A stretch of 64,000 nucleotides of DNA from Eledone cirrhosa (taxonomy: Eukaryota): NCBI GenBank assembly GCA_964016885.1, contig OZ024743.1, forward strand, positions 315,022,001 to 315,086,000, given 5' to 3'. A model generated the notes under the pieces. It was given only the letters and a program-made list of their open reading frames with translations. It did not search any database and was not told the origin of the DNA. How positions within the stretch are numbered: position 1 is the first letter of the stretch; each line of letters begins with the position of its first letter. Of the stretch, positions 1 to 62,723 are shown in pieces. The translations under genes were made by a program, and so were the position numbers.

Positions 1-1474
1 CATGAGACTCTGTGAAGGCATTTATCCAAAAATTTTGTATTTTGGCTTTTCCTGGGGATTTCCATTTGCTGGTTTTTCTTAGAGCCAAGCACAACTGTTC
101 AACTGTTATGTTTTCCCATATTTGTTCCTCAAGGTGAGCTGTATCTTTCATTTGTCTGTCTATCCATGGGCCATGTAGGTTATGAACTTTTTCTTCGGCC
201 CAGATCTTTTCCCAGAATTATTGCACTTCCTCCTTGGGTGGTATTGATTTAGCAGTTATTGTTGACTTACCCATTTTTCTGTAGAAGTTTCTTTGGTTGT
301 TTTTGAACATATTATTGTCCTTATAGAATCTAGATAGTTTTTCAAAGCGCCTTATACGAGCAGCTTTGGCCGACACTTTTTGCTTGATTATTTCTATCAG
401 CATGTCTATGTCACTTGTTGATTTTATACTATACTTTCTTTTCAATTTTCTAAGTTTAGTTTGTTTAACATGTTCACCTACTTTATAGTTTTTAAAATTT
501 CTATGTCAGATCGGAGAAGGTTTATTTGGCGATTGATGTTCTCTTGCCAAGTAGATTTCTTGTGGGAATTCCTTTGTTTTTTCATCTTCACTCCACATAA
601 ATGAGTGGTGACTTTAGCCGATGCATAATAGAGATGATTTAAATCAGTAATGTTTAGTTTGTTTGTGATGATAATGTTTTTGAGAATTATGTTAGTCTTG
701 TGTATTATCTTTTGGTTCTGTTTGGAGTTCTGGATCTTAGGGAGGGTGTGTGTGTGGGGGGGGGGTCTCGTTGCCCCATATCAGATTCTTTCATTTTCAT
801 CCATTCGATCATAATTTCATCATTCAAGTTGGCAAGTTCATTCTCATTCATTTCTTTATCATTTACGATCTCATTATTTTCATTTGGAGTTTAATCTTGA
901 GCATGCACTCCCTCCACTTTTTCGATCCTTTCTTTAATTTGTTCTGTTGCCAGTGATTCCGCCCCAACCCTGGGATTCGAAGTGTTACAATTTACCTCGT
1001 TTTCACTGACACATGTTTCATTTTCCCTTCGCTGACTTGGTGCTAATAGCTTGATCTGATCAATTTCTATATCAGTTAGTAACTTTCTTTTTACAATATT
1101 TATTCTTATATTGGCTAGTTTGTTACTGTCAATATAGCCTCTGTTTTCGGGATGTTTCTTTTTCCAGTTGATATATGTCTGTTCTGTATTCGATATATTT
1201 GATGGGTAGTACATGGCAGTGTAGAAAGCCTCAAGGACTTCTTTATTATCTTCCCTTGACCATTTTTCTCTCTTTTTCTTTGGATTTCTTGGTGGTGAGC
1301 ATGGAGGGCCAACAGTAGGAGTATTCCGGTTATGGGAGGTCTCCAGCTCCGAAGTGATGGGAAGGTTTGAACCATTAGCTGATTTTTCGACCCCAGTCTG
1401 GTTCCTCTCTGAGGGACGCGGCCCTTTTTTACCCGGGTGACGGCCGATCGGTATGAGATTTTATCATTAGACAT
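1..1474 (-). pseudogene. 5' part of a decayed R4/Dong-like non-LTR retrotransposon ORF, running off the left edge
   Basis: Frameshifted pieces: N-terminal 'KWSREDNKEVLEAFYTAMYYP...KLANIRINIVKRKLLTDIEID', 'IKQKVSAKAARIRRFEK...NNMFKNNQRNFY', 'WKSPGKAKIQNFWI'. Homologous to the element at 3193-6565 but a different family. Confidence 0.8.
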
Positions 1475-1720
1475 TTACTTTATTTTGTCGCGTTTTATCC
1501 TTATCCGCCAAGGGGTAATCATTTCGTGTTACCACTTCTAGAACGAGTATCAACCAAGACTAGAGGGGTCGTTCTCCGCTAGAGACACGGCTATTCCCCG
1601 CCATCCCGGTATTTCTTGATCACGGGGTTTTCTTTTTTGTTGTTGTTTTTAAATTGTTATTATCATGAGTGGTTCCTTAATGTGAGCATTGCGTGGCTTA
1701 AGAATGAAATTATCAATAAC

Positions 1721-1775
1721 AATAATTGTCTCCACTCCAGGCACAAGCCCAGCAATCACCCAGTGCATTACAATA
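1721..1775 (-). mobile_element. 3' fragment of tRNA-derived SINE (same family as 37971-38165)
   Basis: aattgtctccactccaggcacaagcccagcaatcacccagtgcattac resembles 48292-48340 and 50893-50942. Confidence 0.55.
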
Positions 1776-1920
1776 ATATAACATACTTTTTGCTGAAGTT
1801 GCCTGTTATTGTTGTTGGCTATGTCGGTGGTGGTGCTGGGGCTTTTTATATTGTTGGTGAGGAAGGGGGGAGCCAGTAGTGCCATAGTTGTTGACGTTTG
1901 GCCAGTGGCCAGGTCACTAA

Positions 1921-2634
1921 GTCAATCTATTTATATCTTTTGCTAGCCTCTCCCTTGTCTAGTGATACCACACCTTCCTCTTTCTTAAGTTAACAGGGGA
2001 ATAGTGGTGGTAGCAATGAAGGAATGGTGGCGGCGGTGATGGGGTAGTGGTAGCAATGATGGATGGAGTGGTGGCGGTGGTGGCGTTGTCGTTACTGAGT
2101 TTTGTTGAGTGGACTAGTTTTTTTATATGTAGTATCTATGCGTTTGTGTCGCCTATGTTTAATATGTGTGTTGAGATATTCCCGTAAAATTGGAATTAAA
2201 CATTTTGTTAAAACTTGAGACAATAATAATAGTAATTATTATTATGATGCTGGGATTGGTGGTGGTGGTGGTGAAATTGCCGTTATCTGGCTGTTATATT
2301 TAGTGTACACAGCGGGGTGATGGTGTAGGCGGTGTATCAAGTTTCTGGTGTTGGTAAAATTGCTGTTATTTGGCTGTTCTATATAGTGTAGACAGAGGGA
2401 GTTTTCTTCCATTTATAACCATTTTCTTTTTTGAATATAAAATATATAATACAAAATTGAATATTTGAGCGATATAACAATATATTATGGATCCCAAAAT
2501 TTATGAGACTTGATTCGGTGGTTTATGCATTTGTACTAAGAACTGTTATTTCACAATTGATTTAAATATGTTAAAAATCAAAAACTTACAGAAGCGATTT
2601 CATGACCTTCTACAACCTTGTGCGTCTTCTTCCC

Positions 2635-2640
<6 letters not shown>
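1921..2640. repeat. Non-coding block X, copy 1 (diverged paralog of 6990-7645)
   Basis: Shared strings e.g. ggtggtggtgaaattgccgttatctggctgtt, tggctgttctatatagtgtagacagag, cgtcttcttcccttatt; both copies are followed by (TTA)n. Confidence 0.85.
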
Positions 2641-2666
<26 letters not shown>

Positions 2667-2669
2667 GTT

Positions 2670-3072
2670 TTTATTTTCTTTCATTATTGTTTCTGAGATA
2701 TGTGCCGAGTGTCTTCTCGACATCTAGGGCAAATAAATTCAGTGTGCATTGGTAAGACAGTAAATACAGCACATTGAATGGGCCTTCTCTGAGTATGTGT
2801 CTGTAAATTAAAGGTGGAAAACTGGGAGAGGGCACTTGCCCTGGTGGTCAGGGCCACTGTGGTCTTTTAATGGGCTTTCTCCACAAATGTCCCTTGGAAG
2901 TCTCCCCCCTATTGGGGAATTTTTCTTTGTTATTTTATTTCAACCTCTGTTTTTTTACACGCAGAAATGCCCATTTGTACCGTCCTGTGTTGTCCTGTAC
3001 TGTCCTTAATGTCTACTTTATGTGAACCCTTGTGGTTAATAAAGAAAACATTATAATTAAAAAAAAAAAAAG
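2670..3072 (+). mobile_element. 3' end of an L1/Tx1-like LINE with AATAAA and poly(A)
   Basis: AATAAA near 3038 then a poly(A) run to ~3071; degenerate coding end 'KFSVHW*DSKYSTLNGPSLSMCL*'; shares tgtctacttta and aataaagaaa.cattat with ~52400-52520. Confidence 0.45.
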
Positions 3073-6000
3073 TATTATTATTATTATTATTATTATTGTT
3101 ATTATTATTATTGTTATTCCTTGAATCTCAGTCATTGATGTTGGTTAACTGGAAAGTCCGTTGGAATGAATATCAAGCCACTACCTGCAGCCTCAGATAT
3201 TCAGGACGTATCGGAGGGTTCTTGCTGTTCCCAGCAAGCATGCCTTTTGAAGCGTTCCAAAAAGCGTGAAGGGGCCGATTTTCTTTAACCATCCCAGTGC
3301 GCCTATGACAATCGGGATCACTTTGACTTCATGGCAGTTCCAAATCCTTTTCACCTCCCACTTTAGGTCCTAGTATCGGTTAATTTTCTCCCTCTCCTTC
3401 TCTTGCACTCTCGTGTCGAAAGGGCAGGCCACATCCACAATCAGACACGATCTTTTTTCTTTGTCCACAACCACCAGGTCAGGTCTATTGTGTTCCAGTT
3501 TTTTGTCCGTCTGTATCCTAAAATCCCACAGCACCTTCACCTGATTGTTCTCCATCACCGCCTCTGGCCTATGCTCATACCATTTCTCAGAATGTGGTAA
3601 ATTGTTTACTTTGCATAGGTGCCAGTGGATCACCCTGCCCATCACGTCGTGTCTCCAGCCCTTATAGTGGGTCTAGGCTAGGTGTTTACACTCGGACACA
3701 ATGTGAGCCACAGTCTCCTCTCTCTCTCTCCACAGATCCTGCACAGTGAGCTAGCCTCCTCCTTGTAAATATGGTGCTTCAACCACTTCGTCTTGAGGGC
3801 CTGCTCCTGCGCAGCCATTAGCATTCCTTCTGTAGCCTTTTTGAGGTCTCCTCTTCTCAACCAGTTCCATGTCTGTGGATCTCTAAATTCAGTTTTCTCA
3901 AAGAAGGTACTATGAAGGGATTTTCCCTTAAGGCCGCTCTTCCTCCTTGATGTTATTTCCTCCTTGGACATCCCCTGGCCTACTGTCCCCTCCTTCAGTA
4001 CAGTTCTGAGCATTGGCTCCTTACTATAGGTCACGTATTTGTATAGGTTGTTTTTCTCCATCTGAACACAGTCCTCTATGCTGATAAGACCTCTTCCACC
4101 CTCAGATCACCTTAGGTAGAGTCTATCGACATCACTCCTCTTGTGGAACATGTTGTAGATAGTCAGTAGCTTCCTAGTCTTCCTATCCATTTCTTTTTGT
4201 TCAGCAACATTCCATCTCAGAATTCCCGCACTGTACCTAATAATAGACACAGCTCGGGAATTTACTGCGCTTATGGCATTTCTGCTGTTCAGATGTGACT
4301 TCAATACGCTCCTTACTCTCCGAATGTATTCAGTTCTTAACAATTCCTTCATTTTTTTGTTCTTTATGCCATCAGCCTCCAGAACACCCAAATACTTGTA
4401 TCCTTCCTCAGAGTCAATTTCCTTTATCATCTCACCTGTTGGTATCTGGATCCCGTTACTTCTGCTCAACCAACCCCTCCTCATCACAATGACTCCACAT
4501 TTACTAATACCAAACTGCATACATATATCACTGCTGAAAATACGGACAGTGTCAACAAGCACATCCAACTCCTTCTCACTTTTCCCGAAGAGCTTAAGAT
4601 CGTCCATGAAGGGGAGGTGATTGATGGTAAGCTCTCCCTTTCCCAACTTGTATCCTGCTCTCACTTTTCGCAGCATAATGGTCAATGGCATCAGGGCAAG
4701 GACAAACAACAGAGGGACAGGCTATCTCCCTGGAAGATACCTCTCTTGATCTTCACGCTTCCCAAGGATACTCCAGTTGATGTCAACTCTGTCTCCCAGG
4801 ACCCCATACTCCTGCCCAGCAACTGTCTGATGTTATCTGCCACCCTGAAGATCTCCAGGCTTTTGGTGATCCAAGAATGAGCCACCATGTCAAATGCCTT
4901 TCTGTAGTCTATCCATCCCATGGCAAGATCAGTGTGTCTCCTCCTGCAATTCCCCATTACCATCTTATCAATAAGTAACTGGTCCTTTGTACCACGTGAC
5001 TTCTTTCGGCATCCTTTCTGTTCGTCCGGTAACAAGTTGTTTGTGTGGAGGTGATGGTAGATTTCCTCAGACACAATGCTTGTCAACAGTTTCCACATTA
5101 CGGACAGACATGTGATAGGTCTATAGTTGGTAACATCATTACCCTTGATTCGGTCTTTCATTATCAGAACTGTGGTACCTTTTGTCAACCACTCTGGCAC
5201 CTCACCCGACACTAAGCAGTCATTGAACATGGCCGTCAGCTTCGGGTGGAGGGATGTTAAATTTTTAATCCAATACCCCTGCACACCATATGGGCCTGGT
5301 GATTTCCAGTTGGTTAGTTTTTTGGCCTGCCCCTTAAGAGTTTCAACTGTGATACTCAAATCAGTTTGTTGGTGTGCCTGCTCACCGATCTCCCTCTGTA
5401 CTGTCTCAATCCACCCTGCCTGGACATTATGTCTAACATCCTGCTCCCATATTCCTCTCCAGAATGTTTTAGTTTGCTCCGCCTCAGGGATCAAGTCGTT
5501 GCCTCTTTCTTTCCGCTCAAGCTGTCCAAACAGCATCTTCTGGTTGTTGTCGAACATGCGGTTCTGTTTATACTGACTGACTCTGTTCTCGTATCGCCTG
5601 ATTTTTGCACTCTTTGCTACAATGCGTTGCTTCAGTTCCTCTATGATAATATTTAGCTTTTTCCTCCTAGTTTTGTACTTTATTTCCAGTCTATTTTTAG
5701 TGCCTATGTTTTTTAGTGTCCCATTCAGTAGTGACTCAAGCTTTCCTATGTCATTTCTCATTTCCCCGATTTGACCACTCAGTCGTTTCTTTCACCACGG
5801 CTCTGCTCTTTCTTGTCTGTTGTTTCCTCTCGCTTTTATACCAAGTAGTTTCCTCACCGTAGTTGCTGTTGCTTTGAGGATATTGTTGCACTGGTGAAGG
5901 CTCCTCGCCTCAAGGTATGGGATGACTTTGTTTACCTTAGCTGTTGTTTCTTTTAACTTTTTCCTGTCCACAAATCTTAGGTTCATAGGTCTCCCACTAT

Positions 6001-6700
6001 CATTGTTCAATTCATCTACCACTAAATTTAGGATGTCAACCGAATCTTGTCCTAGCCCGTCAGTATTCATCTCCTCAGTGGCCGTATCTCTGTTCCAGGT
6101 ATTATTTATCTCAGTATTCAGATCATTGTCTGCTTCGGGTGGTTCCTCCGTTCTCAGGACCTCTTCACCTTAATTTCCCACTGGCTCGCTTGTCTGGCAT
6201 ACTACACCCGCCATCTCCAAGCCATTCTCTCTGCTCAGTTCCTCCAGTTCCAGCTCGCTTATCCACCCATTAGTTCTTATTACCCGAGCCTGCCCGGCCA
6301 ATTTTTGTTTATCTAATTTAAATAGACCAATCTCGTTCCAGATGTTATGCATCCGTCTCCTGTAGCCCCTCTCCTTGGGGTTACTTTTCAGGTAACATTG
6401 CATAACAGTTCTATTCAATTCTTTCGTCCAGTTGGTTCTGGCCCCTTTCCTTCTTCTTCTTCTTCCTCCAACATCAGCAGTATTTGGTTGACAGTCAGGT
6501 TCCTGCTACTGAGCCAGGGGGCACTTGTTGGGTGAGAGTCTGTCACATGACGTTCTAGTCTCCATTTCACCGTTATTCGAACTGTTTATGTTCGATATTT
6601 AAACACTCTTATCGAGGATTGGCGAATGTATGGTTACATAGCCATCTGTGGATTCGCCGTTCCACTTGGCCCTTGTGTGGCATTATCACCACGCTGTATA
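3073..6700 (-). mobile_element. Near full-length decayed R4/Dong-clade non-LTR retrotransposon (RT, CCHC knuckle, restriction-like endonuclease) with (TAA)n 3' tail
   Basis: One ORF broken by frameshifts and stops from ~6565 to the stop at 3193; (TTA)n at 3073-3118 on + strand. Dong elements are known to target TAA repeats. Confidence 0.9.
3193..6565 (-). pseudogene. Disrupted RT-RLE polyprotein of the R4/Dong element
   Basis: RT motifs NYRPITCL, DYRKAFDMV, GIFQGDSLS, FMDDLKL, YKYLG; CRICG zinc knuckle; RHD; RPDLVVVD...DVACP...KEREKINRY; C-terminus LQKACLLGTARTLRYVLNI*. Confidence 0.9.
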
Positions 6701-6989
6701 CGAACACACATAAACAAACAAACACACAGGCAGAAAGGGCCCAAAAAATGAATAAGCATAAGTTTCATTGTAATGTAGTGTTCGAATGTCTGACTTAGTT
6801 TTAGTTTTTTTAGTTTTAGTTTTTCCCCCCTCTTCTCTGTCCGTCCGCCTGCTTCTCTCTTCATTCTTATTTTCTTTACGTTTTTTGTTTTTTTTTTGTT
6901 TTTGTTTTTCTCTGTTTGTTTTTCTCGTTTTTTGCTGTTGTTGCTGTGCTGCTTTGGTTTTGTTGTTTGTTTTTTCTTTTTTCTTTTGA

Positions 6990-7645
6990 GTCTATCTATA
7001 TATTTTGATGCCTTCCTCTTTTTTACTAGTAGGAATTCTATAATGTGGTGGCAGCAGCAAGCTAGGAGAAGTGGGAGACTGGCGGCGGTAGCGATACTGA
7101 GACAGTGGTGGTGGTGATGTCGATACCGAGGCAGTGGTGGTCAGTGAAGGAGTGAAGAGTGGTGGCGGCGGTGATGGGATAGTGGTGGTAATGATGGCAG
7201 TAGTGAGCGGTGGTGGTGAAATTGCCGTTATCTGGCTGTTGTGTTTAGTGTACACAGGTGATGAGGTGGGTGGTGTATCTAGTTTCTGGTGTTGGTGAGT
7301 TTGGCTGTTCTATATAGTGTATCTAGTTTCTGGTGATGGTGAGTTTGGCTGTTCTATATAGTGTAGACAGAGGAGAGGAGGGGGGGGGGGATTCTTCTAC
7401 CATTTATAGCCATTTTCTTTTTTGGATATACAGTGTACAATACAAAGTTGAATATTTGAATATTTGAGCCTTATAACAATATATTTTGGATCCGAATTTT
7501 TGGGGGCTCAAGCCGGGTGCTTTACGTAGCATTTGTATTAAGAGTTGTTATTTCACAAATGATTTAAATATGTTAAAAATTCAAAACTTACGGGAGGGAT
7601 TTCATGACCTCCGCACCTCGTGCGTCTTCTTCCCTTATTGTTATT
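6990..7645. repeat. Non-coding block X, copy 2
   Basis: Paralogous to 1921-2640; followed by (TTA)n at ~7638-7703. Confidence 0.85.
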
Positions 7646-7646
7646 A

Positions 7647-7702
<56 letters not shown>

Positions 7703-7985
7703 TGTTTAAATGAAACTTAAGCGTCAGTACGCCTCGTGAATCCGGCCGACAGGATAGAGGAAACATCGCTCTGACGACGGCGAGGGAAACGCGCTGAAAT
7801 AGCCACTAAAACGCATGGGTTTGCCACAGCGGGCAGCGAACTCCACTCCTATAGTAGTGAAAAGGTGTGTATTCTGGGGTCAAGGACGCTGGAAATCGTC
7901 ACTGCCACAGACTCAACCACACCCCTATCAGATGGGCCCGACACTTTGATAAGTTTCCCTCTTCTACTTGGCAGGCAGTGATCTT
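7638..7985 (-). mobile_element. 3' end of a CRE-clade non-LTR retrotransposon with (TAA)n tail
   Basis: Minus-strand translation with frameshifts: VESVAVTISSVLDPRIHTF...WLFQRVSLAVVR/DVSSILSAG...*, matching the CRE RLE C-terminal pattern PVAVETxGxxG...FQRxSxAVxRGNAxSIL. Confidence 0.7.
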
Positions 7986-8226
7986 CTTGATCTTCTTGAA
8001 TCAATACGTTGGCACCCATCAATATCTCTCCTTTTTTAGTTGCGGCTCATGAGTTAGTTTTTAACTTTCTCTAATTTGTAAATAGTTGTTAAGACTATCG
8101 TCTTTTCCTTTGTCCATTTCTATCGATTTTAAAACACTGATACAAAATTCCTCCAACAGTCGACTGTGTATATTCATCTATTTTCATGACTTCGACCACA
8201 ATTGTTTATTCATTACACACACACAC

Positions 8227-10060
<1,834 letters not shown>

Positions 10061-10413
10061 GGAAAGTCATATTTAAATTGTTGGGTTAACAACGAGTAAA
10101 TATTTATAACTGATATAAAAGCACTCAACAAGTATTTGGAGTATATTTATGATATTAAATAAATGGAAACTATATTTATAAAACCATATTTATTTCATTA
10201 TATATATTTCAGGGATAACATATTAACAATATGGTATGCCTTCTTCAGACAAAATACAATATAAACAGTCTTATAAATAAATAGATACGACATACCTTTC
10301 AATCGACTTGCATTTGGGAAGTTGATTTGGCAGTCCCATATTGTTATCCCTGAAATATATATAATGAAATAAATATGGTTTTATAAATATAGTTTCCATT
10401 TATTTAATATCAT
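10061..10413. mobile_element. Hairpin (inverted pLTR) insertion of Hydra-type PLE family 1
   Basis: Minus arm 10061-~10295 includes a ~90-nt tail; plus arm ~10342-10413; both match the 3' end of the element at ~14470-14618. Confidence 0.85.
10191..10256 (-). ncRNA. Type I hammerhead ribozyme (family 1 pLTR)
   Basis: TATTTTGT-CTGAAGA-AGGCATACCATATT GTT AATATGTTATCCCT-GAA-ATATATAT-A-ATGAAATA. Confidence 0.8.
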
Positions 10414-10738: not shown

Positions 10739-10815
<77 letters not shown>

Positions 10816-10870
10816 CTTTACATGTATCTTGCTCCAATACTGTTGAGCGCTTTATATTATAACTGGAAAA

Positions 10871-13087
10871 ATGGAATTCTTTAAGATTACTTCCTCTCTA
10901 AAAGACATACCTCTACCTAGAAACAAAGACTTTATAAAACAATTAATAGATAAATCTGACTCTTTTATAAGGAGAATCAGGTGGCGTGCATTCCACTTTG
11001 ATAAATCTAATGCAGATGAAAATGTCTCGGACTTAAACAAAGTTTTCAAATCTAAAAGAAATCCACCCCCTAACAAACTTTTATCTGACTTTGAAAACGA
11101 TATAATTTCTATCATACAAGGGGTCAAATTCAAGAGAAACTTCAAAGGCCAGGAATATCTGAAAGGCATTAAGGATAACATTGAGAGCTTAGAGAAAACT
11201 GAGAAGATCTTGGTGAAATCTGACAAGACCAACAACCTCTATGGAGTGCGGAAAGACATGTATAATGGCCTCATACTGAAAGAGCTGAGGAAAAAGTACA
11301 AGGTAGCAGATAAGGCCGAACTTGAGAAAATGAATGTCGAAGCATCTTGTATAATGCACGAGTTGGAAATTGAGAACATAACACAACCTTTCGTGCCCAG
11401 GAAACCGAAGATCAATATGAAGGACCACAAGAGGAATTTTGAAAATGACCTGCCAGTTAGATTGATCGCACCTTCAAAATAATCGGACCTGGGCAAATTA
11501 AGCAAAAACATTCTTGACAGGGTGATACAGCAAATTAAGAACTTGGATTGTGTATCTAACCTGAGCTTGTGGAAGGGAACTGGAGAGGTTGTTGAGTGGT
11601 TTAGGCAAATTAAATATAACAATAATAATAGGTTTATTCAACTTGATATAGCTAACTATTATTCTTCTATTACCCCTAGTCTACTAAATAAGGCACTAAA
11701 TTACGCATTCAAACATACGGACCTAACTAGCAAAGAAATGCATATTATATTATCGGCTAGGAAAACTTTGATAGAATTTAATGACAAATTATGGACCAGA
11801 GCAGATAGAGATAGCAATTTTGACATAACTATGGGATCTTCCGACTCAGCTCAGGTAACTGACCTTGTGGGCTTATTTTTAATCAATTCGCTACATAGGA
11901 AAATACCTGGTACTACCGTAGGTTTATATAGGGATGACATGCTTTTACTTATTAATAATAATAACCCTGAACTAAATAGAAAATGTAAACAAATTACAAA
12001 ATTTTTTAATTACTTTAACCTTAAAATAGAAATTGAGAACAACCATAGAATAGTCAATTTCCTAGATATAACATTAAATCTCAACACATGTCTCCACCAT
12101 CCTTTTCACAAGTTGAATGAAAACTTAAACTATGTCAACTTTAACTCTAACCACCCCAGATCTGTCAAAAACACTATAGTAAACTCAGTTCAAAAACGTA
12201 TCTCTAGGATCTCGTCGAATAGAAAGATTTTCGACGAAAAGGCCCAATACTATAATGAAGCATTAGCTAGGGCAGGATATGCTGATAAGATTGTGTACAT
12301 AGATAATGATAGACAAACTAAACAAAGTAACAACTTTTTTAATTACGGCAACAACATTAACAACTATAATAGAAAGCATTACAATAATTCCAAAGGCCAA
12401 AAAAGAAATAGAACTAGGAACATAATTTGGTTTGCCCCCCCTTTCTCACTAAACATTAAAACCCACATCGCTAAATTATTTTTCAAAGCTCTTGATAATC
12501 GCTTCCCTAGAACACATAGGTATCACTCAATTTTCAATAGGCATACAATTAAATTAACCTACTCATCCACCAAAAATTTAGCACAAAATATTAATAGAAT
12601 AAATAATAGGAACTTAAAACCTAGTGATAATAGCATAAATAATATACAAGTTAACAAATGTAACTGTAGAGATAGATCTAAATGTCCGTTAAATAACAAC
12701 TGCTTAGTTAAAAATATAATATACGATTGTATTGTTAATACTGACTCTAATTCTTTTAACTACGTCGGTTCCACATCGACGGAATTTAAACTTCGCTTTA
12801 ATAACCACAAGAATTCTTTCACAGATCCAAGTAAAAAATCTTCAACGGCACTATCAGGCGTACTCTGGCAACTTAAGCTAGATAGCGTTAGATATTCGAC
12901 GGCTTGGAATATAGTCTCAAGAGGGATTCCTTTTAATTCATCCTCTGAGACATGTGACCTCTGCGCAGAGGAGATATTCTTTATACTAAAATCTAAAAAT
13001 TCCCTTAACCTACGGACACATTTATTCAGTTGTTGCAAACATAGATTAAACTCAACGTTTAAATATAAATTTAAATTTAAAATGTAG
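10871..13087 (+). pseudogene. PLE reverse transcriptase with C-terminal GIY-YIG endonuclease (~738 codons, one in-frame TAA at 11480-11482)
   Basis: ORFs 10871-11482 and 11522-13087 are in frame (RLIAPSK*SDLGKLSK). RT motifs LDIANYYSSI, MGSSDS, YRDD, NFLDI, SNHP; CxCx5C linker (CNCRDRSKC); IIY...YVGST...RFNNH, CDLCAEE, LN. Confidence 0.9.
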
Positions 13088-14511
13088 TATATTTAGTTTG
13101 ATTTATATTTATATGGGAAACTAGCCGATAAATTTTTGATTCCTAAATTTTTGATTCCTTCTTTTTATTCTTTTTTATTGTTTATTTTTATTTTATTTTT
13201 ATTTAAACATTCCTCATGAAAAATTAAGCTACCCTAAAAGCTGATGCTCCAAATGTTTTGAATAAACCTTACACTAGATAAACTTCTATATTAAATATAA
13301 GAACATATGTAGACCAATTTGGACATCATAAACTTTTTGAAATGATCTTTGCTAGATGTGATTTGATAGATAATTTTTGGCTTTGTCTTGTAATGAACTT
13401 GGCAATATATTGTCAATTAACTTTGAAGGGTTGATCTTTGTGGTTTATTTTTATTTTTATTTTTTATTACTGTAGTATTTTATAATTATTTTTTATTTTT
13501 TATTTTTATTTTTATTTTTATTTTTAATATCTTTAATATGTAAATTTTTAATACGTAATATTTTTTAATACGTAATATTTTTAATATGTAATATTTTTAT
13601 TATGTAATATTCTTTCGTAATATTTTTTTATTTTTTTAGTTTTCTATTTTATTATTACTTATTTTTACTTATTATTATTATTGTTATCTTTTTATTTTTT
13701 TAGTTTTGTTTCTGATATATATTTTTATTAGTATATTGAAATCTGCTCTCTATTTCTGCTTGATAGATAATCTTGTAGAGTAAAGACAGGAATAATAATA
13801 CACATATATGTATGCTCAAATTTTTATACCACATTGAGAATGTTTTCCGTGAACTTAGAGTTTGCAGAGTGAATCATGTGGATTCGCATGGATGTTTGTA
13901 GCTGTCACATAAACATATGAATTTTTTTAAAACTAAACATAAGATAATTAATTTTCACACACTATGGATACTTGTCTCATTCAGGAATACTGATATTTAC
14001 AATATAGTGTAAGTTTTATAAATACTAATACATTAAAACATAGGGTTTTTACGCCTCGAATATATCTGGCTATTTTTTAATTTTTTTCTCTCGCTATTTT
14101 TTTCTCTCTCTATATTTTTTCTCTCTCTATATATCTCCCTTACATTAATACTTGAGCTAAATAAATAAATAAATAAATATATGTATCATTGATACATTTA
14201 CTCAAAATGACCTCCCACTACCTAATTTTCTATATATATATGTATCTATCTCTATTTCCTCTCTCTATATATATATCTCTTTCTGTTTCTTTACATGAAG
14301 TTCTTCGCTTTATCTATCTTTCCATCTCTCTATTTTGTTCCATGCATTTCTTCTTTTTCTTCCTTTTCTTCGTTTTCTGTCTTTCTTTCTTTTTTCTCTC
14401 TTTCTTTCTCTCTGTGTAAAATTTTTTCACTGCCAGCTTAAACCTCTTCAAATGGAAGTCGGTGTTATAACGGTATGTCGAATCTATTTATCTATAAAAC
14501 TGTTTATATTG

Positions 14512-14577
14512 TATTTTGTCTGAGGAAGGCATAGCATATTGTTAATATGATATCCCCGAAATATATATAATGAAATA
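14512..14577 (+). ncRNA. Type I hammerhead ribozyme in the 3' pLTR
   Basis: TATTTTGT-CTGAGGA-AGGCATAGCATATT GTT AATATGATATCCCC-GAA-ATATATAT-A-ATGAAATA; A-C mismatch at the base of stem II in this copy. Confidence 0.75.
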
Positions 14578-14614
14578 AATATGGTTTTATAAATATAGTT
14601 TCCATTTATTTAAT

Positions 14615-14662
<48 letters not shown>

Positions 14663-24310: not shown

Positions 24311-24764
24311 ATATATATATATTGTTATGCTTTGGGAGGGTCATGTTGCTAATAAGAAATACACGCACCAATCGCTTTCACTCCAATTTATTATAAATTA
24401 AATTCATAAATTTAAGAATTAATAAATTTCCGGTTGGTTGGTTGGTTCCACAACCGGACGGTTGTTCATATATTGTCAAAGTTATTTCGTCACACATTCT
24501 GTGACCTCTTCAGTGACTGGGGATTCTTTTCTTTGTTTTTGTGCCTCTCCTTTGTTCTGTCCTACGCCATTTTATTTCTGTGTGTGTTGTGTGCTTAGTT
24601 TGCGCATGTGTTACATCCGGGTGTATGTGTGTGTTTATATTTGTTTATTTATTTGTTTATTTATATGTTACTGGTTGGTTGTTAGTTCTATGTGTGTGTG
24701 TGTGATTTCATTTTGTCCTTAATTGTAAGTTGTGATGTTGCTATTCCATTCATGTTTTCTATTT

Positions 24765-26440
24765 CGCAGAATCAGCGAAAGTAACCGTTATAGGGACCTA
24801 ACAAACTGTATAATAGGCAGTATGGATGTTGTGTCCCTATATCCATCCATTGACGTGGATTTTTCTGTGGAGAAATGCGTAGAAATGATCAGTGAGAGCA
24901 ATGGTGTATTCCGTCGGATTGATACCAGTGAGCTGGGACTCCTACTTAAACCTACCTATAGTAATGATTGTCTATATACATATGACCTTAGCAAGACCAG
25001 CAAGAGGCAGACCACTTACCATTACCTCAATGGCCAAGAAATCCCACACAGATAGATGGGACGGGTGGACCAGAGCCATACAAACCCGCGAAAACTACAT
25101 GCGGTGGGAGCCAGTATAAAATTAACCCTGAAGGAACATATGTTCAAATTTCTATGGAAAACATATGCCCAAGAAGGGGGAGCAGCCATTAGTGTTAGCA
25201 TTGCAGGTGACATAGCTAACCTATTCATGGTATGGTGGGACAACAGACTTAAACTTAAAATTAAAGAACAACTAGAAGACCCCTTAACCCTGATAATGTA
25301 CTCCCGCTACGTTGATGATATAAACATCGTAGTTAAAGCACCCCCACTGGAGAACAGTCAGGAATTAGAGAAAAACACAATGGAAAGCATCCAGCAAATA
25401 GCTAATTCCATCCACCAGAGAATAGAGTTACTATAGACTACCCAAGCAAACACCCCAACCATCGATTACCTGTACTAGACACAGAGCTCTGGTTAGAAAC
25501 CATTAATAACAAAAAACAAATCCTCCATTCCCATTATGCCAAACCCATGACTTCCAAATATCTGATCCACCGAAACTCAGCTGTTTCGGACCACACCAAA
25601 ATCAACATACTGATTGACGATTTAGTAGGGGTGATGAGAAACGTGTCCCGCATGTGCAACCCCAAAGAACTAGAGAGACGCATACAACACTTCATACACC
25701 GTATGCAGTTCTCTGGTTACAATCAGAGAGATACAATCAGAGTATATAGAGGAGCCAGAACCAAATGGGAAAAAATGGTAAATAATGATACAAATGGGGC
25801 CTGCCCCATGTATAGGGGCAAATTTTGGAATAGAATAGAAAGAACTAGGAATAAGATTAATAGAATAAACTCATGATATGATAGCAATAAATACCAGAGT
25901 GTAATGTTCATCAATACAACCCCTAGAGGTGAATTAGCTTACAAATTTAGAAGGGCCCTAGATAAACATAAACTCAATATTAAGATAGTAGAAAGACCAG
26001 GTACCTCCATAAAAACACTTATTAGCAATACATACCCTTACCAAAGACCTCCCTGTATAGATAATAAATGTATAATCTGTAAACTAAGCCCCCATATTAA
26101 CTGTAAAACTAAAAATGTAGTATATAGCATAAGATGTACTGAAGGACAATGTAGATATAAGAATATAGTGTACATAGGTGAGACAGATCGTAGTATATGA
26201 GAACGGATAAATGAACACTGGCGAGAGCTTCAAGATAGAAAAGAATCATCTGTACTCCACCAACATGCTTAAATAGAACATGAGGGTACATTAGAGAACA
26301 TAGAAATAAAAATAGAATCTACACACAGAAAAGACGCAATGTCTAGACAAATCACAGAGGCAATAAACATAAATGAACTCCAATTAAAATTAAATAGAAA
26401 ACATGAATGGAATAGCAACATCACAACTTACAATTAAGGA
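24765..26440 (+). pseudogene. Disrupted PLE RT + GIY-YIG coding sequence
   Basis: SMDVVSLYPSI, YSRYVDDI, LPVLD, KPM, NVVYSIRC...VYIGETDRS.*ERINEH, RQITEAINI...LNRKHEW across frameshifts and stops. Confidence 0.85.
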
Positions 26441-26634
26441 CAAAATGAAAACACACACTCATAGAACAAACAATCAACCAGTAACATGTAAATAAACAAA
26501 TAATGAAACAAATATAAACACACACAGACACCCGGATGTAACACATGCGCAAACTAAGCACACGACACACACAAAAACAAGATGACGTAGGACAGAACAA
26601 AGGAGAGGCACAAAAACAAAGAAAAGAATCCCCA

Positions 26635-26677
26635 GTCACTGAAGAGGTCACAGAATGTGTGACGAAAGAACTTTGAC
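26635..26677 (+). ncRNA. Minimal type I hammerhead
   Basis: GTCA-CTGAAGA-G-GTCACA GAATG TGTGAC-GAA-AGAACT-T-TGAC; inverted copy at 24475-24517. Confidence 0.7.
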
Positions 26678-26887
26678 AATATATGAACAACTGTCCGGTT
26701 GTGGAACCAACCAACCGGAAATTTATAAATTCTTAAATTTATAAATTTAATTTATAATAAATTAGAGTGAAAGCGGTTGGTGCGTGTATTTCTTATTGGC
26801 AACATGACCCTCCCAAAGCATAACAATATCGCTTTCAACACACGTTTTCAGATAAAGAATCTCGCTAAACAAATTCAGAAACGAAAT

Positions 26888-26939
<52 letters not shown>

Positions 26940-29030: not shown

Positions 29031-29033
<3 letters not shown>

Positions 29034-29401
29034 GATATTAACAAATGGAAACTATATTTATAAAACCATATTTATTTCATTATACATATTTCAAGGACAC
29101 CAAGTTAAATTATGCTGTGCTTTCATCAGATAAAATATAATATAGATCAGTTTTATAAATAAATATTGACATACCCTTAAAAAATGCAACCATGATCTAT
29201 ATTATATTTTATCTGATGAAAGCACACCATAATTTAACTTGATGTCCTTGAAATATGTATAATCAAATAAATATGGTTTTATAAATATAATTTCCATTTG
29301 TTAATATCGTATTTTTACTCGAAATATTTGTTGAGTGCTTTATATCAGTTATAAAAATATTTGCTTGTTGTATCCCAACAATTTAAATAGAACTTTTACA
29401 T
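29031..29401. mobile_element. Hairpin insertion of a family 1-related Hydra pLTR
   Basis: Arms ~29031-29149 and ~29193-29311, tail 29312-29401; hammerheads at 29073-29137 (-) and 29205-29269 (+). Confidence 0.85.
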
Positions 29402-36913: not shown

Positions 36914-37110
36914 TAGGAAACGGTATGACCCCGACGGCAGAGCTCAAGACGGCTATTTCTGGACTATTCCTAGTCCAGAAATAGCCGTAGAAACGGCTTG
37001 AGCTCTGTCGTCGGGGTCATACCGTTTCCTATTTCCCACTCTAGTTCTCTAAGTATTGAGTACTCTGGTGCGTTATGGTCCATCTGGTTCCTTACCACAT
37101 TTCCTTTGTT
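36914..37110. mobile_element. Short PLE-type hairpin with tail
   Basis: Arms 36914-36966 and 36971-37031, loop TTCC; tail with ACTC (37038)...GAGT (37058); in (TA)n. Confidence 0.7.
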
Positions 37111-37127
37111 ATATATATATATATATA

Positions 37128-37665
<538 letters not shown>

Positions 37666-39699: not shown

Positions 39700-39856
39700 T
39701 GCAGAAGTTATATTTAATTTGTTGGGATTCCAAAAAACTTAAAAGTGTATAACTGATATAGAGCACTCAACTGGTCCTGGAGTAAACTATATTTAAATTG
39801 TTGGCGTTCGAAGAAACTTAAAGATGTATAACCGATATAGAACACTCAACAGCATA

Positions 39857-39860
<4 letters not shown>
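39700..39860 (-). mobile_element. Tandem dimer of the ~80-bp family 1 tail module
   Basis: Units ~39710-39788 and ~39789-39852, homologous to 10061-10145, 29312-29401 and 61751-61840. Confidence 0.75.
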
Positions 39861-39898
<38 letters not shown>

Positions 39899-39907
<9 letters not shown>

Positions 39908-40694
39908 ATATTTGGGGAGGGTCATATTTGCGTAATATTGCCAGAATTAATAACAGAACACACTCACTGTTTGGTTGGTTTTCGCTTCTCGCTGTTTATA
40001 TATATATCTGCGATCTAACTTACTCGGTCCTCAATGTTGCCATTGACTGACCGGCGGTCAAAAATAATACAGATACAATATAGACAAACACATATATATA
40101 TATATAGTTTACATAATTTACATAAATCTTTCGTTGCACATCTGCAACATCGTCAGTGGTGTTATATTCATTGTTCCTCCTGTTGTGTTGTATGTCTACG
40201 CCATTTTTTTTTTGTATGTTAATGTACGCGTGTGTATGTGTGTGTATATATGTGTGTGTATGTGTGTGTGGGTGGACCAGTATTTTTTCCCCCTGGTAAA
40301 ATGGTGTACAAAAAAAAAAAAGAAAAAAAAAAAAAATGGCGTAGACATACAACACAACAGGAGGAACAATGAATATAACACCACTGACGATGTTGGAGAT
40401 GTGCAACGAAAGATTTATGTAAATTATGTAAACTATATATATATGTGTTTGTCTATATTGTATCTGTATTATTTTTGACCGCCGGTCAGTCAATGGCAAC
40501 ATTGAGGACCGAGTAAGTTAGATCGCAGATATATATATATAAAAGACAGCGAGAAGCGAAAACCAACCAAACAGTGAGTGTGTTCTGTTATTAATTCTGG
40601 CAATATTACGCAAATATGACCCTCCCCAAATATAACAATATCTGTTTCGACACACGATTTCATATAAAAACCTCGCAAAACTAATTCATCGCTG

Positions 40695-40695
<1 letters not shown>
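39899..40695. mobile_element. Hairpin of a second-clade PLE pLTR with tail
   Basis: Arms 39899-40213 and ~40320-40641, tail 40642-40695; hammerheads CTGACGA-T-GTTGCA GATG TGCAAC-GAA-AGATTT-A at 40120-40160 (-) and 40381-40420 (+); ends resemble 24319 and 26829. Confidence 0.85.
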
Positions 40696-40728
<33 letters not shown>

Positions 40729-42180
40729 TAAAATAACAGATTAAAGTTTAAGCAAAGAATCGCTGCTTTCACCCTTAACGGGATCTTCTGAAACTTACAA
40801 AGTCAATCTGTAAACGCAGAACTGGATATTTCAAAAAACGTTGCAACCGGAGGATGACAGGAAGACGATACTTTGGTTCGTGGTAACGTTCGCTGGCAAA
40901 GAACGGGAAAAAACGAATAATACGTCATTAATAGGAGCGGTGAAAAACAATTACGCGCAAAGACAAAACCACGTTTATGGTATAAAAGAGGTCGTAGACT
41001 AATGGTCTCTTAGGTGGTGCATTGAGACGTTCTCTGGCAATGAACGAAAATACGAAGATAATAAGTCATATGTGGAGCGTGGAGAACAATAGCACGCAAA
41101 GACAAAACCACGTAAATGGTATAGTAGAATCATAGACTAAAATTCTAACTAGGAGACCAAATGAATCTCCGCTACAGAGTTAAGAACAAAGTAAATAAAT
41201 ACAATACAGAAGTAATAGAAACAAATAAATACATACACGCAAACAGATACGTACATACACAAGCATACGCAAAACCTTACCATGGGTATACAAAACCACG
41301 CACATATAAATATGTGTGTGTGTGTATGCTCGTGTACAAATAAATAAATAATTATATAAACGTATATAAGTAAATAAATACGTATATAACAAGCGCACAC
41401 GCATACCTACATATAAATACACGAATGTTCGGAGACGTAAGTCAACTAAAACAAGAAGTACACATATACACACACCCACCATACGTACGAACCTGCGCAC
41501 TCACGCGGACGCACAACTCCCGTATATACATAGCCAAACCCTAAATACCAGAATATGTAAAAATTATACGCTATAACAGTCAAATATACGTACGAGAAGG
41601 TATACATACCTTCACAAAACATACATGTAATATATATTTACCTATGCAAATAAGTAAAGGAATAAACAAACATATACTTAGCTCCCACATCAAGACGTAA
41701 AATATCCACGTATAGATCGTGCTATCCGTTAGGGTATAACGTGGGGCTGTAATACAGGAAAGTTTTGTGCAATTTATGTTTACAAGCCGAAATTGCCTCA
41801 GATTTTTGTTTAAGATGTGGTCTGTAGCATAGAGTATTTCCAGTGACGTCATATTCCTTCTTAGAGGGTAACGAAAAGAATGGGTATGCATGTAAAGACG
41901 CTGCTTGAAACTATTGGCGGTTAACCCTATGTAAGCCCTACGGGACGTGGGTGTTACAACCTTACATTTGTAGACAATGTTACTAGAGAGGCATTTCCCG
42001 GATAGTCAGCCCGATTCCTACAATTAGAGTTGGTACTAACTACAGGGTTGCACGTGTTCCTACGGCTAGATAGTTTAGCTAAATTTGAAGCTGTGATGTT
42101 ATGTGCAAGGTTAGGAGTCGTAGAGTAAGAAATTTTAATAGTATTTCTATTAAAATTTTTAATATATTTATGTGTAGACC

Positions 42181-43224
42181 ATGACTAACTGCGGACCTCG
42201 TGCTTGCGACAGGTTCAGAAAAGATCTCACAGCCTTCTTTAAAGGCTTCAACCTCTCTATACAGGTTGAGGCCAATCTCTCGGTCGTTAATTACCTCGAC
42301 GTTACCCTCAATTTATTGAATGGGTTGTATTACCCGTATAGAAAGCCGAATGATACGCTTAATTACATAAGTAAGCATTCCAACCATCCTGCCAGCATAA
42401 CCAAGAACCTGGTAAGAAACATTTCGTTGAGGCTTTCCCGTCTTTCCACCAACGAGCGCATTTTCAACGACCATTCCACTTATTACAATGAAGCTCTTGC
42501 TCGAAGTGGATTTGTCGATAAGGTAGCATATACAGAGTACGAAAATAGACCTAGAAGAAATAGATCCCGTCGCATTTGTTGGTATAACCCACCATATAAT
42601 ATGGAGGTGGCCACACCATTAGCTAAGATCTTTCTTTCCCTTATTACGAAGCATTTTCCCCCTACACATAAATATAGTAAAATTTTTAATAGAAATACTA
42701 TTAAAATGTCTTACTCTACGACTCCTAACCTTGCACATAACATCACAGCTTCAAATTTAGCTAAACTATCTAGCCGTAGGAACACGTGCAACCCTGTAGT
42801 TAGTACCAACTGTAATTGTAGGAATCGGGCTGACTGCCCCCTATCCGGGAAATGCCTCTCTAGTAACATTGTCTATAAATGTAAGGTTGTAACACCCACG
42901 TCCCGTAGGGCCTACATAGGGTTAATCGCCAATAGTTTCAAGCAGCGTCTTTACATGCATACCCATTCTTTTCGTTACCCTCTAAGAATGAATATGACGT
43001 CACTTTCAGTTCATATCTGGAGTCTAAAAGACAACCACACCCAATATAAGTTACACTGGGAGATCCTAGCTAGGGCTAGATCGTATAACGGAAATAAAAG
43101 ACCATGTGATCTCTGCGCCGCAGAGGTCCTGGAAATACTCTACGCTACAGACCACATCTTAAACAAAAAATCTGAGGCAATTTCGGCTTGTAAACATAAA
43201 TTGCACAAAACTTTCCTGTATTAG
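42181..43224 (+). pseudogene. C-terminal part of PLE RT + GIY-YIG (open frame, 5'-truncated after the catalytic DD)
   Basis: NYLDVTLNL, SNHP, WYNPPY, CNCRNRADCPL, IVY...YIG...RLYMH, CDLCAAE; collinear with the 11522-13087 protein. Confidence 0.9.
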
Positions 43225-44180
43225 AGCCCCACGTTATACCCTAACGGATAGCACGATCTATACGTGGATATTTTACGTCTTGATGTGGGAGCTAAGTATA
43301 TGTTTGTTTATTCCTTTACTTATTTGCATAGGTAAGTATATATTACATGTATGTTTTGTGAAGGTATGTATACCTTCTCGTACGTATATTTGACTGTTAT
43401 AGCGTATAATTTTTACATATTCTGGTATTTAGGGTTTGGCTATGTGTATACGGGAGTTTTGCGTCCGCGTGAGTGTGCAGGTTCGTACGTATGGTGGGTG
43501 TGTGTATATGTGTACTTCTTTTTTTAGTTGACTTACGTCTCCGAACATTCGTGTATTTATATGTAGGTACGCGTGTGCGCTTGTTATATACGTATTTATT
43601 TACTTATATACGTTTATATAATTATTTATTTATTTGTACACGAGCATACACACACACACATATTTATATGTGCGTGGTTCTGTATACCCATGGTAAGGTT
43701 TTGCGTATGCTTGTGTATGTACGTATCTGTTTGCGTGTATGTATTTATTTGTTTCTATTACTTCTGTATTGTATTTATTTACTTTGTTCTTAACTCTGTA
43801 GCGGAGATTCATTTGGTCTCCTAGTTAGAATTTTAGTCTACGATTTCTACTATACCATTTACGTGGTTTTGTCTTTGCGTGCTATTGTTCTCCACGCTCC
43901 ACATATGACTTATTATCTTCGTTTTTTCGTTCATTGCCAGAGAACGTCTCAATGCACCACCTAAGAGAACATTAGTCTACGACCTCTTTTATACCATAAA
44001 CGTGGTTTTGTCTTTGCGCGTAATTGTTTTTCACCGCTCCTATTAATGACGTATTATATTCGTTGTTTCCCGTTCTTTGCCAGCGAACGTTACCACGAAC
44101 CAAAGTATCGTGTTCCTGTCTTCCTCCGGTTGCAACGCTTTTTGAAATATCCAGTTCTGCGTTTACAGATTGACTCTGTT

Positions 44181-44231
44181 AGTTTCAGAAGATCCCGTTA
44201 AGGGTGAAAGCAGCGATTCTTTGCTTAAACT
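44181..44231 (+). ncRNA. Hammerhead variant with CAGAAGA (U4A) core and full stem III
   Basis: AGTTT-CAGAAGA-T CCC GTTAA GGG T-GAA-AGCAG CGATTCT TTGCT-T-AAACT; also at 16691-16741 (+) and 40744-40796 (-). Confidence 0.6.
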
Positions 44232-44360
44232 TTAATCTGTTATTTTAATAAATATATGCTCTACGGTTCTTATATATTTGATATATATATTTTCCTTATC
44301 GAGCCCTCTTTGGATTTTAGTCTCCAATTTTATTATTATTACTATATATATATATATATA

Positions 44361-46395
<2,035 letters not shown>

Positions 46396-61377: not shown

Positions 61378-61437
61378 GTGTGTGTCTGTGTGTGGGTGCG
61401 TGTATATATATATACAGGTATATATATATATATATAT

Positions 61438-61744
61438 GAACAATGGCGTGGTGTTTTGTTGCGAGTGTGATACATATGAATGAAAATACACCGAGAAACG
61501 GGACTGTCCATCTTCAGTGGTCCTACTGACTATCATTGGTATTTCTTCACATTAAAGACCAGATACCTCAAAATCAGTGCGAGCAATAACTAAAAAAGTT
61601 ATTTCAGTTCTGTCCCAATAACTTATTTAAGTTATTACTTGCACTGATTTTAAGGTATCTGGTTTTTATGCGAAGAAATACCAATGAGAACAGCAGACCA
61701 CTGATGATGGACAGTCCCGTTTCTCGGTCTATTTTCATTCATAT
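61438..61744. mobile_element. PLE-type hairpin with tail and half-hammerhead motif
   Basis: Arms ~61474-61605 and ~61618-61744; tail 61438-61473. Confidence 0.75.
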
Positions 61745-61750
61745 ATATAT

Positions 61751-62174
61751 AAGCAAAAGGGATATTTAATTTGTTGGTAATTCAACAAATATATATGTTT
61801 ATAACTGATTCGAAGCACTCGACAGTTTTTGGTGGAGTAAAATATCAATGATATTAAATAAATGGAAACTATATTTATAAAACCATATTTATTCTATTAT
61901 ATATATTTCAAAGTACCAAAACTTTGGTACGCCCTCATCAGAATAAAATACAAAGTTTGTTTTATAAATATTGACATATCCAGGAAGAAGATCTTAACGG
62001 TTCAGGTTTTGCCTGAACTTGAACCGTTAAGATCTTCCTTGATATGTCAATATTTATAACTCAAACTTTGTATTTTATCTGATGAGAACGTTCCAAAGTT
62101 GTGGTACCATTGAGATATAATATAATAGAATAAATATGATTTTATAAATATAGTTTCCATTTATTTAATATCAT
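61751..62174. mobile_element. Hairpin of a family 1-related Hydra pLTR
   Basis: Arms ~61847-62003 and ~62019-62174, tail 61751-61846; hammerheads at 61890-61950 (-) and 62071-62132 (+, GAAA mutated to GAGA). Confidence 0.85.
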
Positions 62175-62723
62175 TTATATATATATATATATATATTTAT
62201 ATGTGCATGATGTATACATACGTACATATATATGTATATATATATATATGTAAATATATATATATATATATATATATGTACGTATGAATACAACATGCAC
62301 ATATATACGTAGAGATATGTATTTGTATTTCATACAAAAAATATATATAATTTTCCATTTCTTATTTTTCAGGTGAGTGGGAACAATGTGAAAAATACGT
62401 GAAAAGGAGGTAATGTAATTTTACAATTACCTCCCTCATAGCGATACTATTATATATTATGTATAGATTTATATATTATTTTACCTTCCTCTTTATATGT
62501 TTTCTGATACATTGTCTTTTGTTTTCACATAAGTATTTCTCTTACAGTTTCGGATATATGAGAGTAGAACGATGATGTGATACATATTTTATGAAGCTGT
62601 GAAGCTATAGCAGTGAAGTAATATACATAGACTTAAAAACGAAGGCCCTGGCCCTCGACTTGTTGCCATTGTTTCACAACTATAATATACATGTTTATGT
62701 ATATATATGTATATATATATATA

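Follow-up and report, generated by a model that had tools for sequence, protein, structure and literature searches.

Twin predicted bulged hairpins bound the one-sided tail of Hydra-clade Penelope-like elements in Eledone cirrhosa and may place their two insertion ends

Penelope-like elements (PLEs) carry a one-sided tail and head-to-head arms, features of the transposition cycle that have been called unexplained (Craig et al. 2021, PMC8557442). A 64,000-nt stretch of the 3.0-Gb genome of Eledone cirrhosa (contig OZ024743.1, positions 315,022,001 to 315,086,000 of the forward strand), here called the window and numbered from its first letter, raises the question of what fixes the ends of such insertions. 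A first-pass annotation of the window had proposed that insertions of one PLE family (family 1) end at only two positions, a short end (S) and a long end (L), and that two tandem stem-loop modules, each lying just behind one of these ends, direct the reverse transcriptase (RT), with priming by one module on each strand of the cut (TA)n target. The module behind S is referred to as module 1, and the module behind L as module 2.

One unit of the element occupies 10811-14618 (+ strand) and comprises an ORF, an AT-rich 3' region, a hammerhead-like motif and an S end. At its 5' side, a truncated tail remnant (10811..10823, +) abuts (TA)n and holds the position where the L ends of other copies fall; the start at 10811, taken earlier for the long-end sequence, does not represent an L end but a 5' truncation within the tail. 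The Hydra-clade ORF (10871..13087, +) contains the RT as well as a C-terminal GIY-YIG endonuclease (EN), with one in-frame stop at 11480-11482. The AT-rich 3' region (13088..14618, +) extends over 1.5 kb and closes at S 14618 in (TA)n. Upstream of S, a minimal type I hammerhead-like motif (14506..14582, +) was read by eye against the architecture given in PMC4209133, with CUGANGA at 14520-26, GAAA at 14558-61 and a palindromic, UA-rich stem III; the core, the palindromic stem III and a stem II that changes between subfamilies were likewise recognized by eye. In the Rfam scan, no hammerhead appears among the 150 of 272 matches listed, which include only microsatellite-driven matches below the gathering scores.

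Across its full length (10811-14618), the unit can be aligned with 11 other loci at 90-98%. Four of these family-1 loci contain intact natural ORFs of 737-742 aa; natural open ORFs exist, and a repaired 10871-13087 protein is therefore unnecessary. The natural 737-aa ORF possesses RT motifs together with the GIY-YIG residues IVY..YVG, R, H, E and N. The predicted protein model (pLDDT 90) has TERT as its top Foldseek match (3du5, E 1.3e-09), and a Pfam scan of the ORF assigned no family. According to Craig et al. (PMC8557442), the Hydra clade is diagnosed by RW[KR], the change of DKG to DKT, a CxCx5C linker, CxxC and CxH motifs around the E and N of the EN, and no CCHH, and the Penelope/Poseidon elements are diagnosed by the DKG motif, CCHH in the EN and the absence of a Zn-finger-like linker. 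The ORF contains RWR and DKT, of which RW and DK[T] are kept among relatives, a CxCx5C linker (CNCRDRSKC), and CxxC (CDLC) and CxH (CKH) motifs flanking the E and N of the EN; no conserved cysteine pair exists within the GIY-YIG core of the ORF and its relatives (no CCHH). Judged by these protein motifs, the 10811-14618 element is a Hydra-clade EN+ PLE. Membership of the Penelope/Poseidon clade is ruled out by DKT (not DKG) and the CxCx5C linker. In family 1, pLTR-type partial tandems, the inverted 5'-truncated arm and the one-sided tail are all present.

All eight ends quoted by the first-pass annotation are present within 1-2 nt, the S ends at 14618, 10412-10413, 29031-29033 and 62174-62175, and the L ends at 10061, 29401, 39700 and 61751. 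The family-1 head-to-head insertion at 10061..10413 has its L end at 10061, on a minus arm with the tail, and its S end at ~10412; module 1 is located in its tail (10120..10142, -). The head-to-head insertion at 29031..29401 has an S end at ~29033, an L end at 29401, and a module 1 (29317-29339, +) whose first upper pair is mismatched. Two older insertions are an L-ended tail fragment (39700..39858, -; L end 39700, module 1 39783-39762) with a 79-nt tandem duplication, and a head-to-head insertion at 61751..62175 (L end 61751, S end ~62175, module 1 61838-61814, -). A family-2 Hydra PLE, with 39% aa identity to family 1, is inserted at 40719..44345 (S end 40719, L end ~44345) and contains a long-loop module 1 at 44258-44307 (+). 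Further insertions were observed in the same stretch. In a family-5 Hydra hairpin insertion (44365-46261), the tail measures ~110 nt and S is followed by a motif resembling module 1; a hairpin of another family (61437-61748) with a hammerhead-like motif and a tail of ~35 nt shares a (TA)n run with the adjoining family-1 insertion. Strict module matches also occur at 37038-37064 (+), 37477-37499 (+), 55896-55875 (-), 30122-30094 (-) and 29506-29478 (-), probably in the tails of other Hydra families. Broken ORF pieces of a non-LTR retrotransposon, another class, lie at 891-6169 (-).

Beyond the window, the ends are bimodal, as had been proposed. Among the first 100 (contig 1) of the 29,483 genome matches to an exact 30-nt anchor just 5' of S, 54 end at S, 45 end at L and one is a read-through; by BLAST over the window and own-genome loci, S or L terminates 173 of the 190 family-1 ends that are not read-throughs, and these counts rest on fetched loci. 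The remaining ends lie before S (12) or between S and L (5), several of them in diverged subfamilies, and 23 family-6 rows scored as ending before S are subfamily variants (by eye). A TA run follows 160 of the 173 family-1 ends; the automated end positions overrun into TA repeats and were used for end classes only. In raw reads of three public DNA runs (restriction-site libraries), 5,295-8,019 loose ends enter (TA)n at S; L is absent among the loose-end rows listed, and near L only the depth falls. The order of tail, module 2 and ATG expected for the consensus is seen in the read-through copies, which show the complete series of hammerhead-like motif, S, module 1, L, module 2 and ATG in 24 of 30 loci, counted by eye among loci picked with a query that contained module 2. 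The other six loci of this search, the window copy included, start within the tail (by eye). The read-through copies also reject the idea that module 2 is merely the module 1 of another subfamily. A degenerate long-end pattern gave 9 matches, none of which is a read-through copy.

The distance between an end and its module is less strict than was first thought. Of 78 S sites, 33 have their last matched base at -3 and 21 at -6, and for most L ends it falls at -8 or -4/-5; the exact start position is blurred, since the template itself reads TA/AT at its junction with the (TA)n target. The claim of fixed distances (~7 nt and 5-8 nt) stands insofar as the ends lie before the modules, but the exact distance gives way to a range, mostly 3-8 nt. 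The S-to-L distance follows the module spacing, being 91-92 nt in family 1, 89 nt in family 2 and 78 nt in family 6, families whose surroundings are unalignable, and the spacer length is constant while the spacer letters differ between subfamilies.

The module itself is more elaborate than the simple TACTC...GAGTG stem-loop initially described, of which the lower stem is retained but in which a 2-nt bulge, an upper stem and a conserved 3' tail had been missed. Its predicted structure has a (N)CUC/GAG(Y) lower stem, a bulge U[UCA] on the 3' side, an upper stem with a variable loop, and an ACUCU-like tail. In the window copy, module 2 (10831..10853, +) has a GCUC/GAGC lower stem (10831-34 and 10845-48), an upper stem with loop (10835-42), a UU bulge (10843-44) and a 3' tail (10849-53). 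Four families of the E. cirrhosa genome (1, 2, 6 and 7) contain two modules. In subfamily C (9 loci), the 7-nt spacer and the stem are retained, and the spacer letters and the loop are altered. In family 6 (38% aa identity), two modules are located behind its two ends, as seen in 20 of 26 rows. The two-module layout predicted a second module ~7 nt after L, and in family 2 it is found 7 nt past L (12/30 loci showing both). Of 30 family-7 loci, 15 have two modules separated by 113 nt, with the outer pair unpaired; the S end is at -3 in 3/4, and the only L end found is at -14. A family-7 tandem cluster with a period of ~3.0 kb was observed at G000:C4:204.13-204.57 Mb (L201-L208).

The module also exists in foreign relatives, namely 71 metagenome or MAG loci at 31-38% identity (of 91 fetched), the hosts of which are presumably marine animals. 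In the 170 nt before the ATG, 64 of these 71 loci have at least one module and 44 have two, compared with a module in 22/601 and two in 1/601 control windows from ORF interiors. Two modules occur in 36 of 63 foreign upstream stretches, versus a mean of 1.3 (maximum 5) over 100 dinucleotide shuffles, and in 4 on the antisense strand. The module spacing in the foreign loci is 55-74 nt in 41/44. Of 40 foreign ends listed no more than 40 nt from a module, 24 (3 of them at contig ends) fall between -7 and -1, and many continue into (TA)n; TA is most frequent at -6 of the foreign modules (42/96). Hydra PLE copies were also observed within bacterial MAG contigs of animal-associated samples (L328-L340), probably as host contamination; among viral contigs, none encoding a relative was found. 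In Rfam, the module is unmatched among the 150 of 272 matches listed.

Pairing was counted by script on unique foreign modules, under a definition that requires neither upper pairing nor particular bulge letters; a MAFFT alignment of 39 modules places gaps wrongly in short loops, and the scripted counts were used instead. Upper pair 1 is paired in 87/94 modules (shuffle mean 67.5, maximum 75), upper pair 2 in 59/88 (mean 37.0) and upper pair 3 in 46/60 (mean 23.6), values reached by 0 of 2000 shuffles, and upper pair 4 shows no significant excess (24/45, shuffle mean 18.6, maximum 29). On a quick 47-row protein tree, the three upper pairs of module 1 switch from one Watson-Crick type to another a minimum of 8, 8 and 6 times, respectively. 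The bulge reads U+[UCA] in 90/94, with first-pair registers of 0, 1 and 3 bulged bases in 3, 4 and 13 of 94. The compensatory change from ACTC/GAGT to GCTC/GAGC, noted earlier between the two modules, is present but represents the weakest covariation of the module, the outer pair being nearly invariant (G-C in 83/94 foreign modules, unpaired in 10). The minimum-energy fold (MFE) recovers the exact bulged register in 28 of 100 modules and the lower stem in 80, and module 1 is absent from the whole-region MFE (z -1.09); folding into the bulged register would therefore need protein.

In head-to-head insertions, the two ends are combined with great regularity. S is paired with L in 24 of the 25 anchor pairs (the remaining one joins S to a tandem ending at L), in all 49 distinct family-1 pairs found by BLAST (50 rows, one duplicate), in 7/7 pairs of family 2 and in 27/28 of family 6; pairs broken by a run of at least nine TA were excluded. 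The sole S+S pair (locus L105, 2889-3004) is a perfect 115-nt family-6 palindrome with no tail. Both the S and the L ends point outward, the orientation that two cDNAs have when each begins at one 3'-OH of a cut. Among the 49 family-1 pairs, the longer arm is S in 17, L in 19 and neither in 13, the split point being unreliable in short hairpins; where the arms differ by more than 200 nt, S is longer in 8 and L in 12. Thus the opposite-strand priming suggested by the first-pass annotation is supported by the end polarity and by strict S+L pairing in which either arm can be the longer. In six insertions (L105, L100, L044, L109, L095 and L070), the S arm exceeds the L arm by more than 200 nt and yet is under one unit; it stops short of the upstream tail, and therefore neither arm is a fold-back copy of the other. 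At the arm junctions that can be resolved (20/49), 14 overlap by 0-19 nt and 6 have a gap, and the centres of several arms of equal length are palindromic; fold-back thus probably takes part in closing the arm join. At locus L189 (~985-1010, element orientation), the 5' junction of a full-length family-2 copy resembles a 5-6-nt inverted L-end stub, the smallest possible second arm.

Poseidon_Ac (PAc) cuts and extends both strands of an AT-rich target, with two internal starts bounding the tail, and is a predicted dimer (Frangieh et al. 2024, PMC11167929). On the sequence evidence above, the twin modules of the Hydra elements are probably RT-positioning signals, one for each insertion end. The tandem arrangement of units is observed, and an RNA that continues past the 3' end of one unit holds S, module 1, L and module 2. 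By analogy with the PAc in vitro data, the EN would cut both strands of the (TA)n target. Each 3'-OH would anneal to a UA/AU that lies several bases 5' of one module, and would prime cDNA there. Each hairpin would likely bind one RT-EN molecule and set its copying start; the module is missing from the end that it defines because the module itself would not be copied. The tail would be the stretch between the two start sites, so that its length equals the module spacing. One target end receives S and the other L, a pattern that is observed and the cause of which is likely a protein dimer on one RNA holding both modules. The two cDNAs would then be joined head to head via microhomology or fold-back of one cDNA. 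The complete scheme, in which a dimer of the telomerase-like PLE protein sits on two tandem bulged hairpins of one RNA and performs two target-primed reverse transcriptions at once (two-ended 'dual TPRT'), is offered tentatively, at slightly under an even chance.

The best surviving alternative, itself unlikely, is that the modules act in DNA, where the EN would recognize them in a cDNA or duplex intermediate, cut a few bases 5' and trim both ends. It accords with the attribution of the tail to EN-mediated resolution by Craig et al. (PMC8557442) and with the requirement of the D. virilis EN for the tail in recognition (as cited in PMC11167929), and the wobble pairs show no strand asymmetry (G.U 7 versus A.C 5), which does not tell RNA from DNA. 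However, the TA/AT microhomology at the junctions fits primer annealing, PAc forms both ends in vitro by internal RT initiation (PMC11167929), and single UUCG- and GNRA-type loops exist, though few. Less probable still is a role of the modules in RNA 3'-end formation, by cleavage or termination, with RNAs ending at S or L copied from their 3' ends. Freely mixed RNAs of this kind predict that about half of the pairs are S+S or L+L, whereas 1/84 is observed in families 1, 2 and 6, and the PAc product size is unaffected by 3' extensions (PMC11167929); the conserved unpaired tail after the stem could nevertheless be a nuclease or termination signal, and PAc RNA-seq read ends match the two start sites (PMC11167929). 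We give the same low credence to the modules doing other work, such as transcription start, translation from the ATG or packaging, with the ends arising from TA microhomology and another feature: in most foreign relatives module 2 precedes the predicted ATG by 33-70 nt, and the ends of a non-Hydra family are fixed although it lacks the module, but TA-rich sequence is found throughout these regions and yet the ends fall just before each module in families of unrelated local sequence and differing spacing. That L is the only start site, with the cDNA folding back and second-strand synthesis halting at S before module 1, is highly improbable, since palindromic centres in several equal-length arms and an earlier proposal of self-priming (PMC3846280) are outweighed by the six insertions with a longer S arm under one unit, whose arms are not copies of each other, and by single copies ending at S (14618 in the window); fold-back as the sole mechanism is contradicted, and it may complete the join.

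The preferred reading, RT positioning by twin modules, is delimited by a second PLE clade at 24319-26890 and 39900-40698 and at loci L371, L377 and L378, with DKSG, a CxxxxCxxC linker and a long N-rich N-terminus, which by motif appears Neptune/Nematis-like. It has fixed S and L ends ~58 nt apart and S+L in 9/9 pairs, and the CUC/GAG module is absent. This family without the module still pairs S with L, and pairing therefore does not need twin hairpins; the twin hairpin is a Hydra solution, and S+L pairing seems to extend further. By eye, the sequence following S in this clade is able to base-pair (8 and 6 bp) with that following L, and L seems to lie inside one large hairpin. The PAc RNA letters in the text of supplementary figure 1 of PMC11167929, if their order is true, contain two similar GGC-loop-GCC...GAC units ~41 nt apart, near the tail length. 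These letters are a lead that the Poseidon elements may rely on a twin signal with a different shape.

In L1 twin priming, both target strands prime on one RNA and generate an inversion, with a variable second site and non-overlapping arms. In the Hydra PLEs, by contrast, neither site is variable, and each arm repeats the other. In telomerase RNA, the template-boundary stems, and in retrons, the msr stems, a protein-bound RNA stem limits the copied region. The Hydra stem differs in that it lies 3' of the start site and forms a tandem pair, and the comparison drawn here is one of role.

Compared with the Hydra clade of Craig et al. (PMC8557442), the elements studied here share the (TA)n target, tandem and inverted insertions and the often one-sided tail, and the hammerhead of that clade has a candidate counterpart here in the hammerhead-like motif. 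The tails there are 30-40 bp and the units 'generally <3 kb', as against 55-113 nt and 3.9 kb here; the tail is ascribed to EN resolution, and the available part of that paper does not describe an RNA hairpin at the tail boundaries, where the twin modules are located here. PAc and this Hydra element have in common two fixed tail-bounding sites, both-strand polarity and an AT-rich target, but the PAc start sites are equal between strands and initiation takes place inside an AC-rich stem loop, whereas here the ends lie 5' of the module (PMC11167929). Head-to-head arms, palindromic junctions and a tail on one arm, as found here, were reported by Arkhipova et al. (2013, PMC3846280); in the available part of that paper, no cis-signal is given and an antisense RNA template is proposed, whereas here two target-primed cDNAs would suffice. 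No description of the twin module was found in searches of an open-access library, and the accessible portions of PMC4209133 and PMC7229834 do not mention it. The module is real, clade-wide and apparently undescribed, a cis-element in a known kind of retroelement; the two start sites and the tail are already published, and what appears to be new is a module that may place them.

Two internal starts are known for one Poseidon element, and what places them is left unexplained in the part of that report available (PMC11167929). With a 20-25-nt motif that shows clade-wide covariation and a fixed register, and with natural intact ORFs, this old question becomes directly testable. If the reading is true, telomerase's closest relatives among retroelements would have their first RNA recognition element in this module. 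It would also mark the boundaries of Hydra PLEs in a simple way for annotation, and might provide a compact signal by which RNA-templated insertion could be directed to double-strand cuts. If dual TPRT is also true, the hairpin pair would be a portable signal that fixes both insertion junctions and sets the tail length, and integration of these elements would be programmed as a two-ended process.
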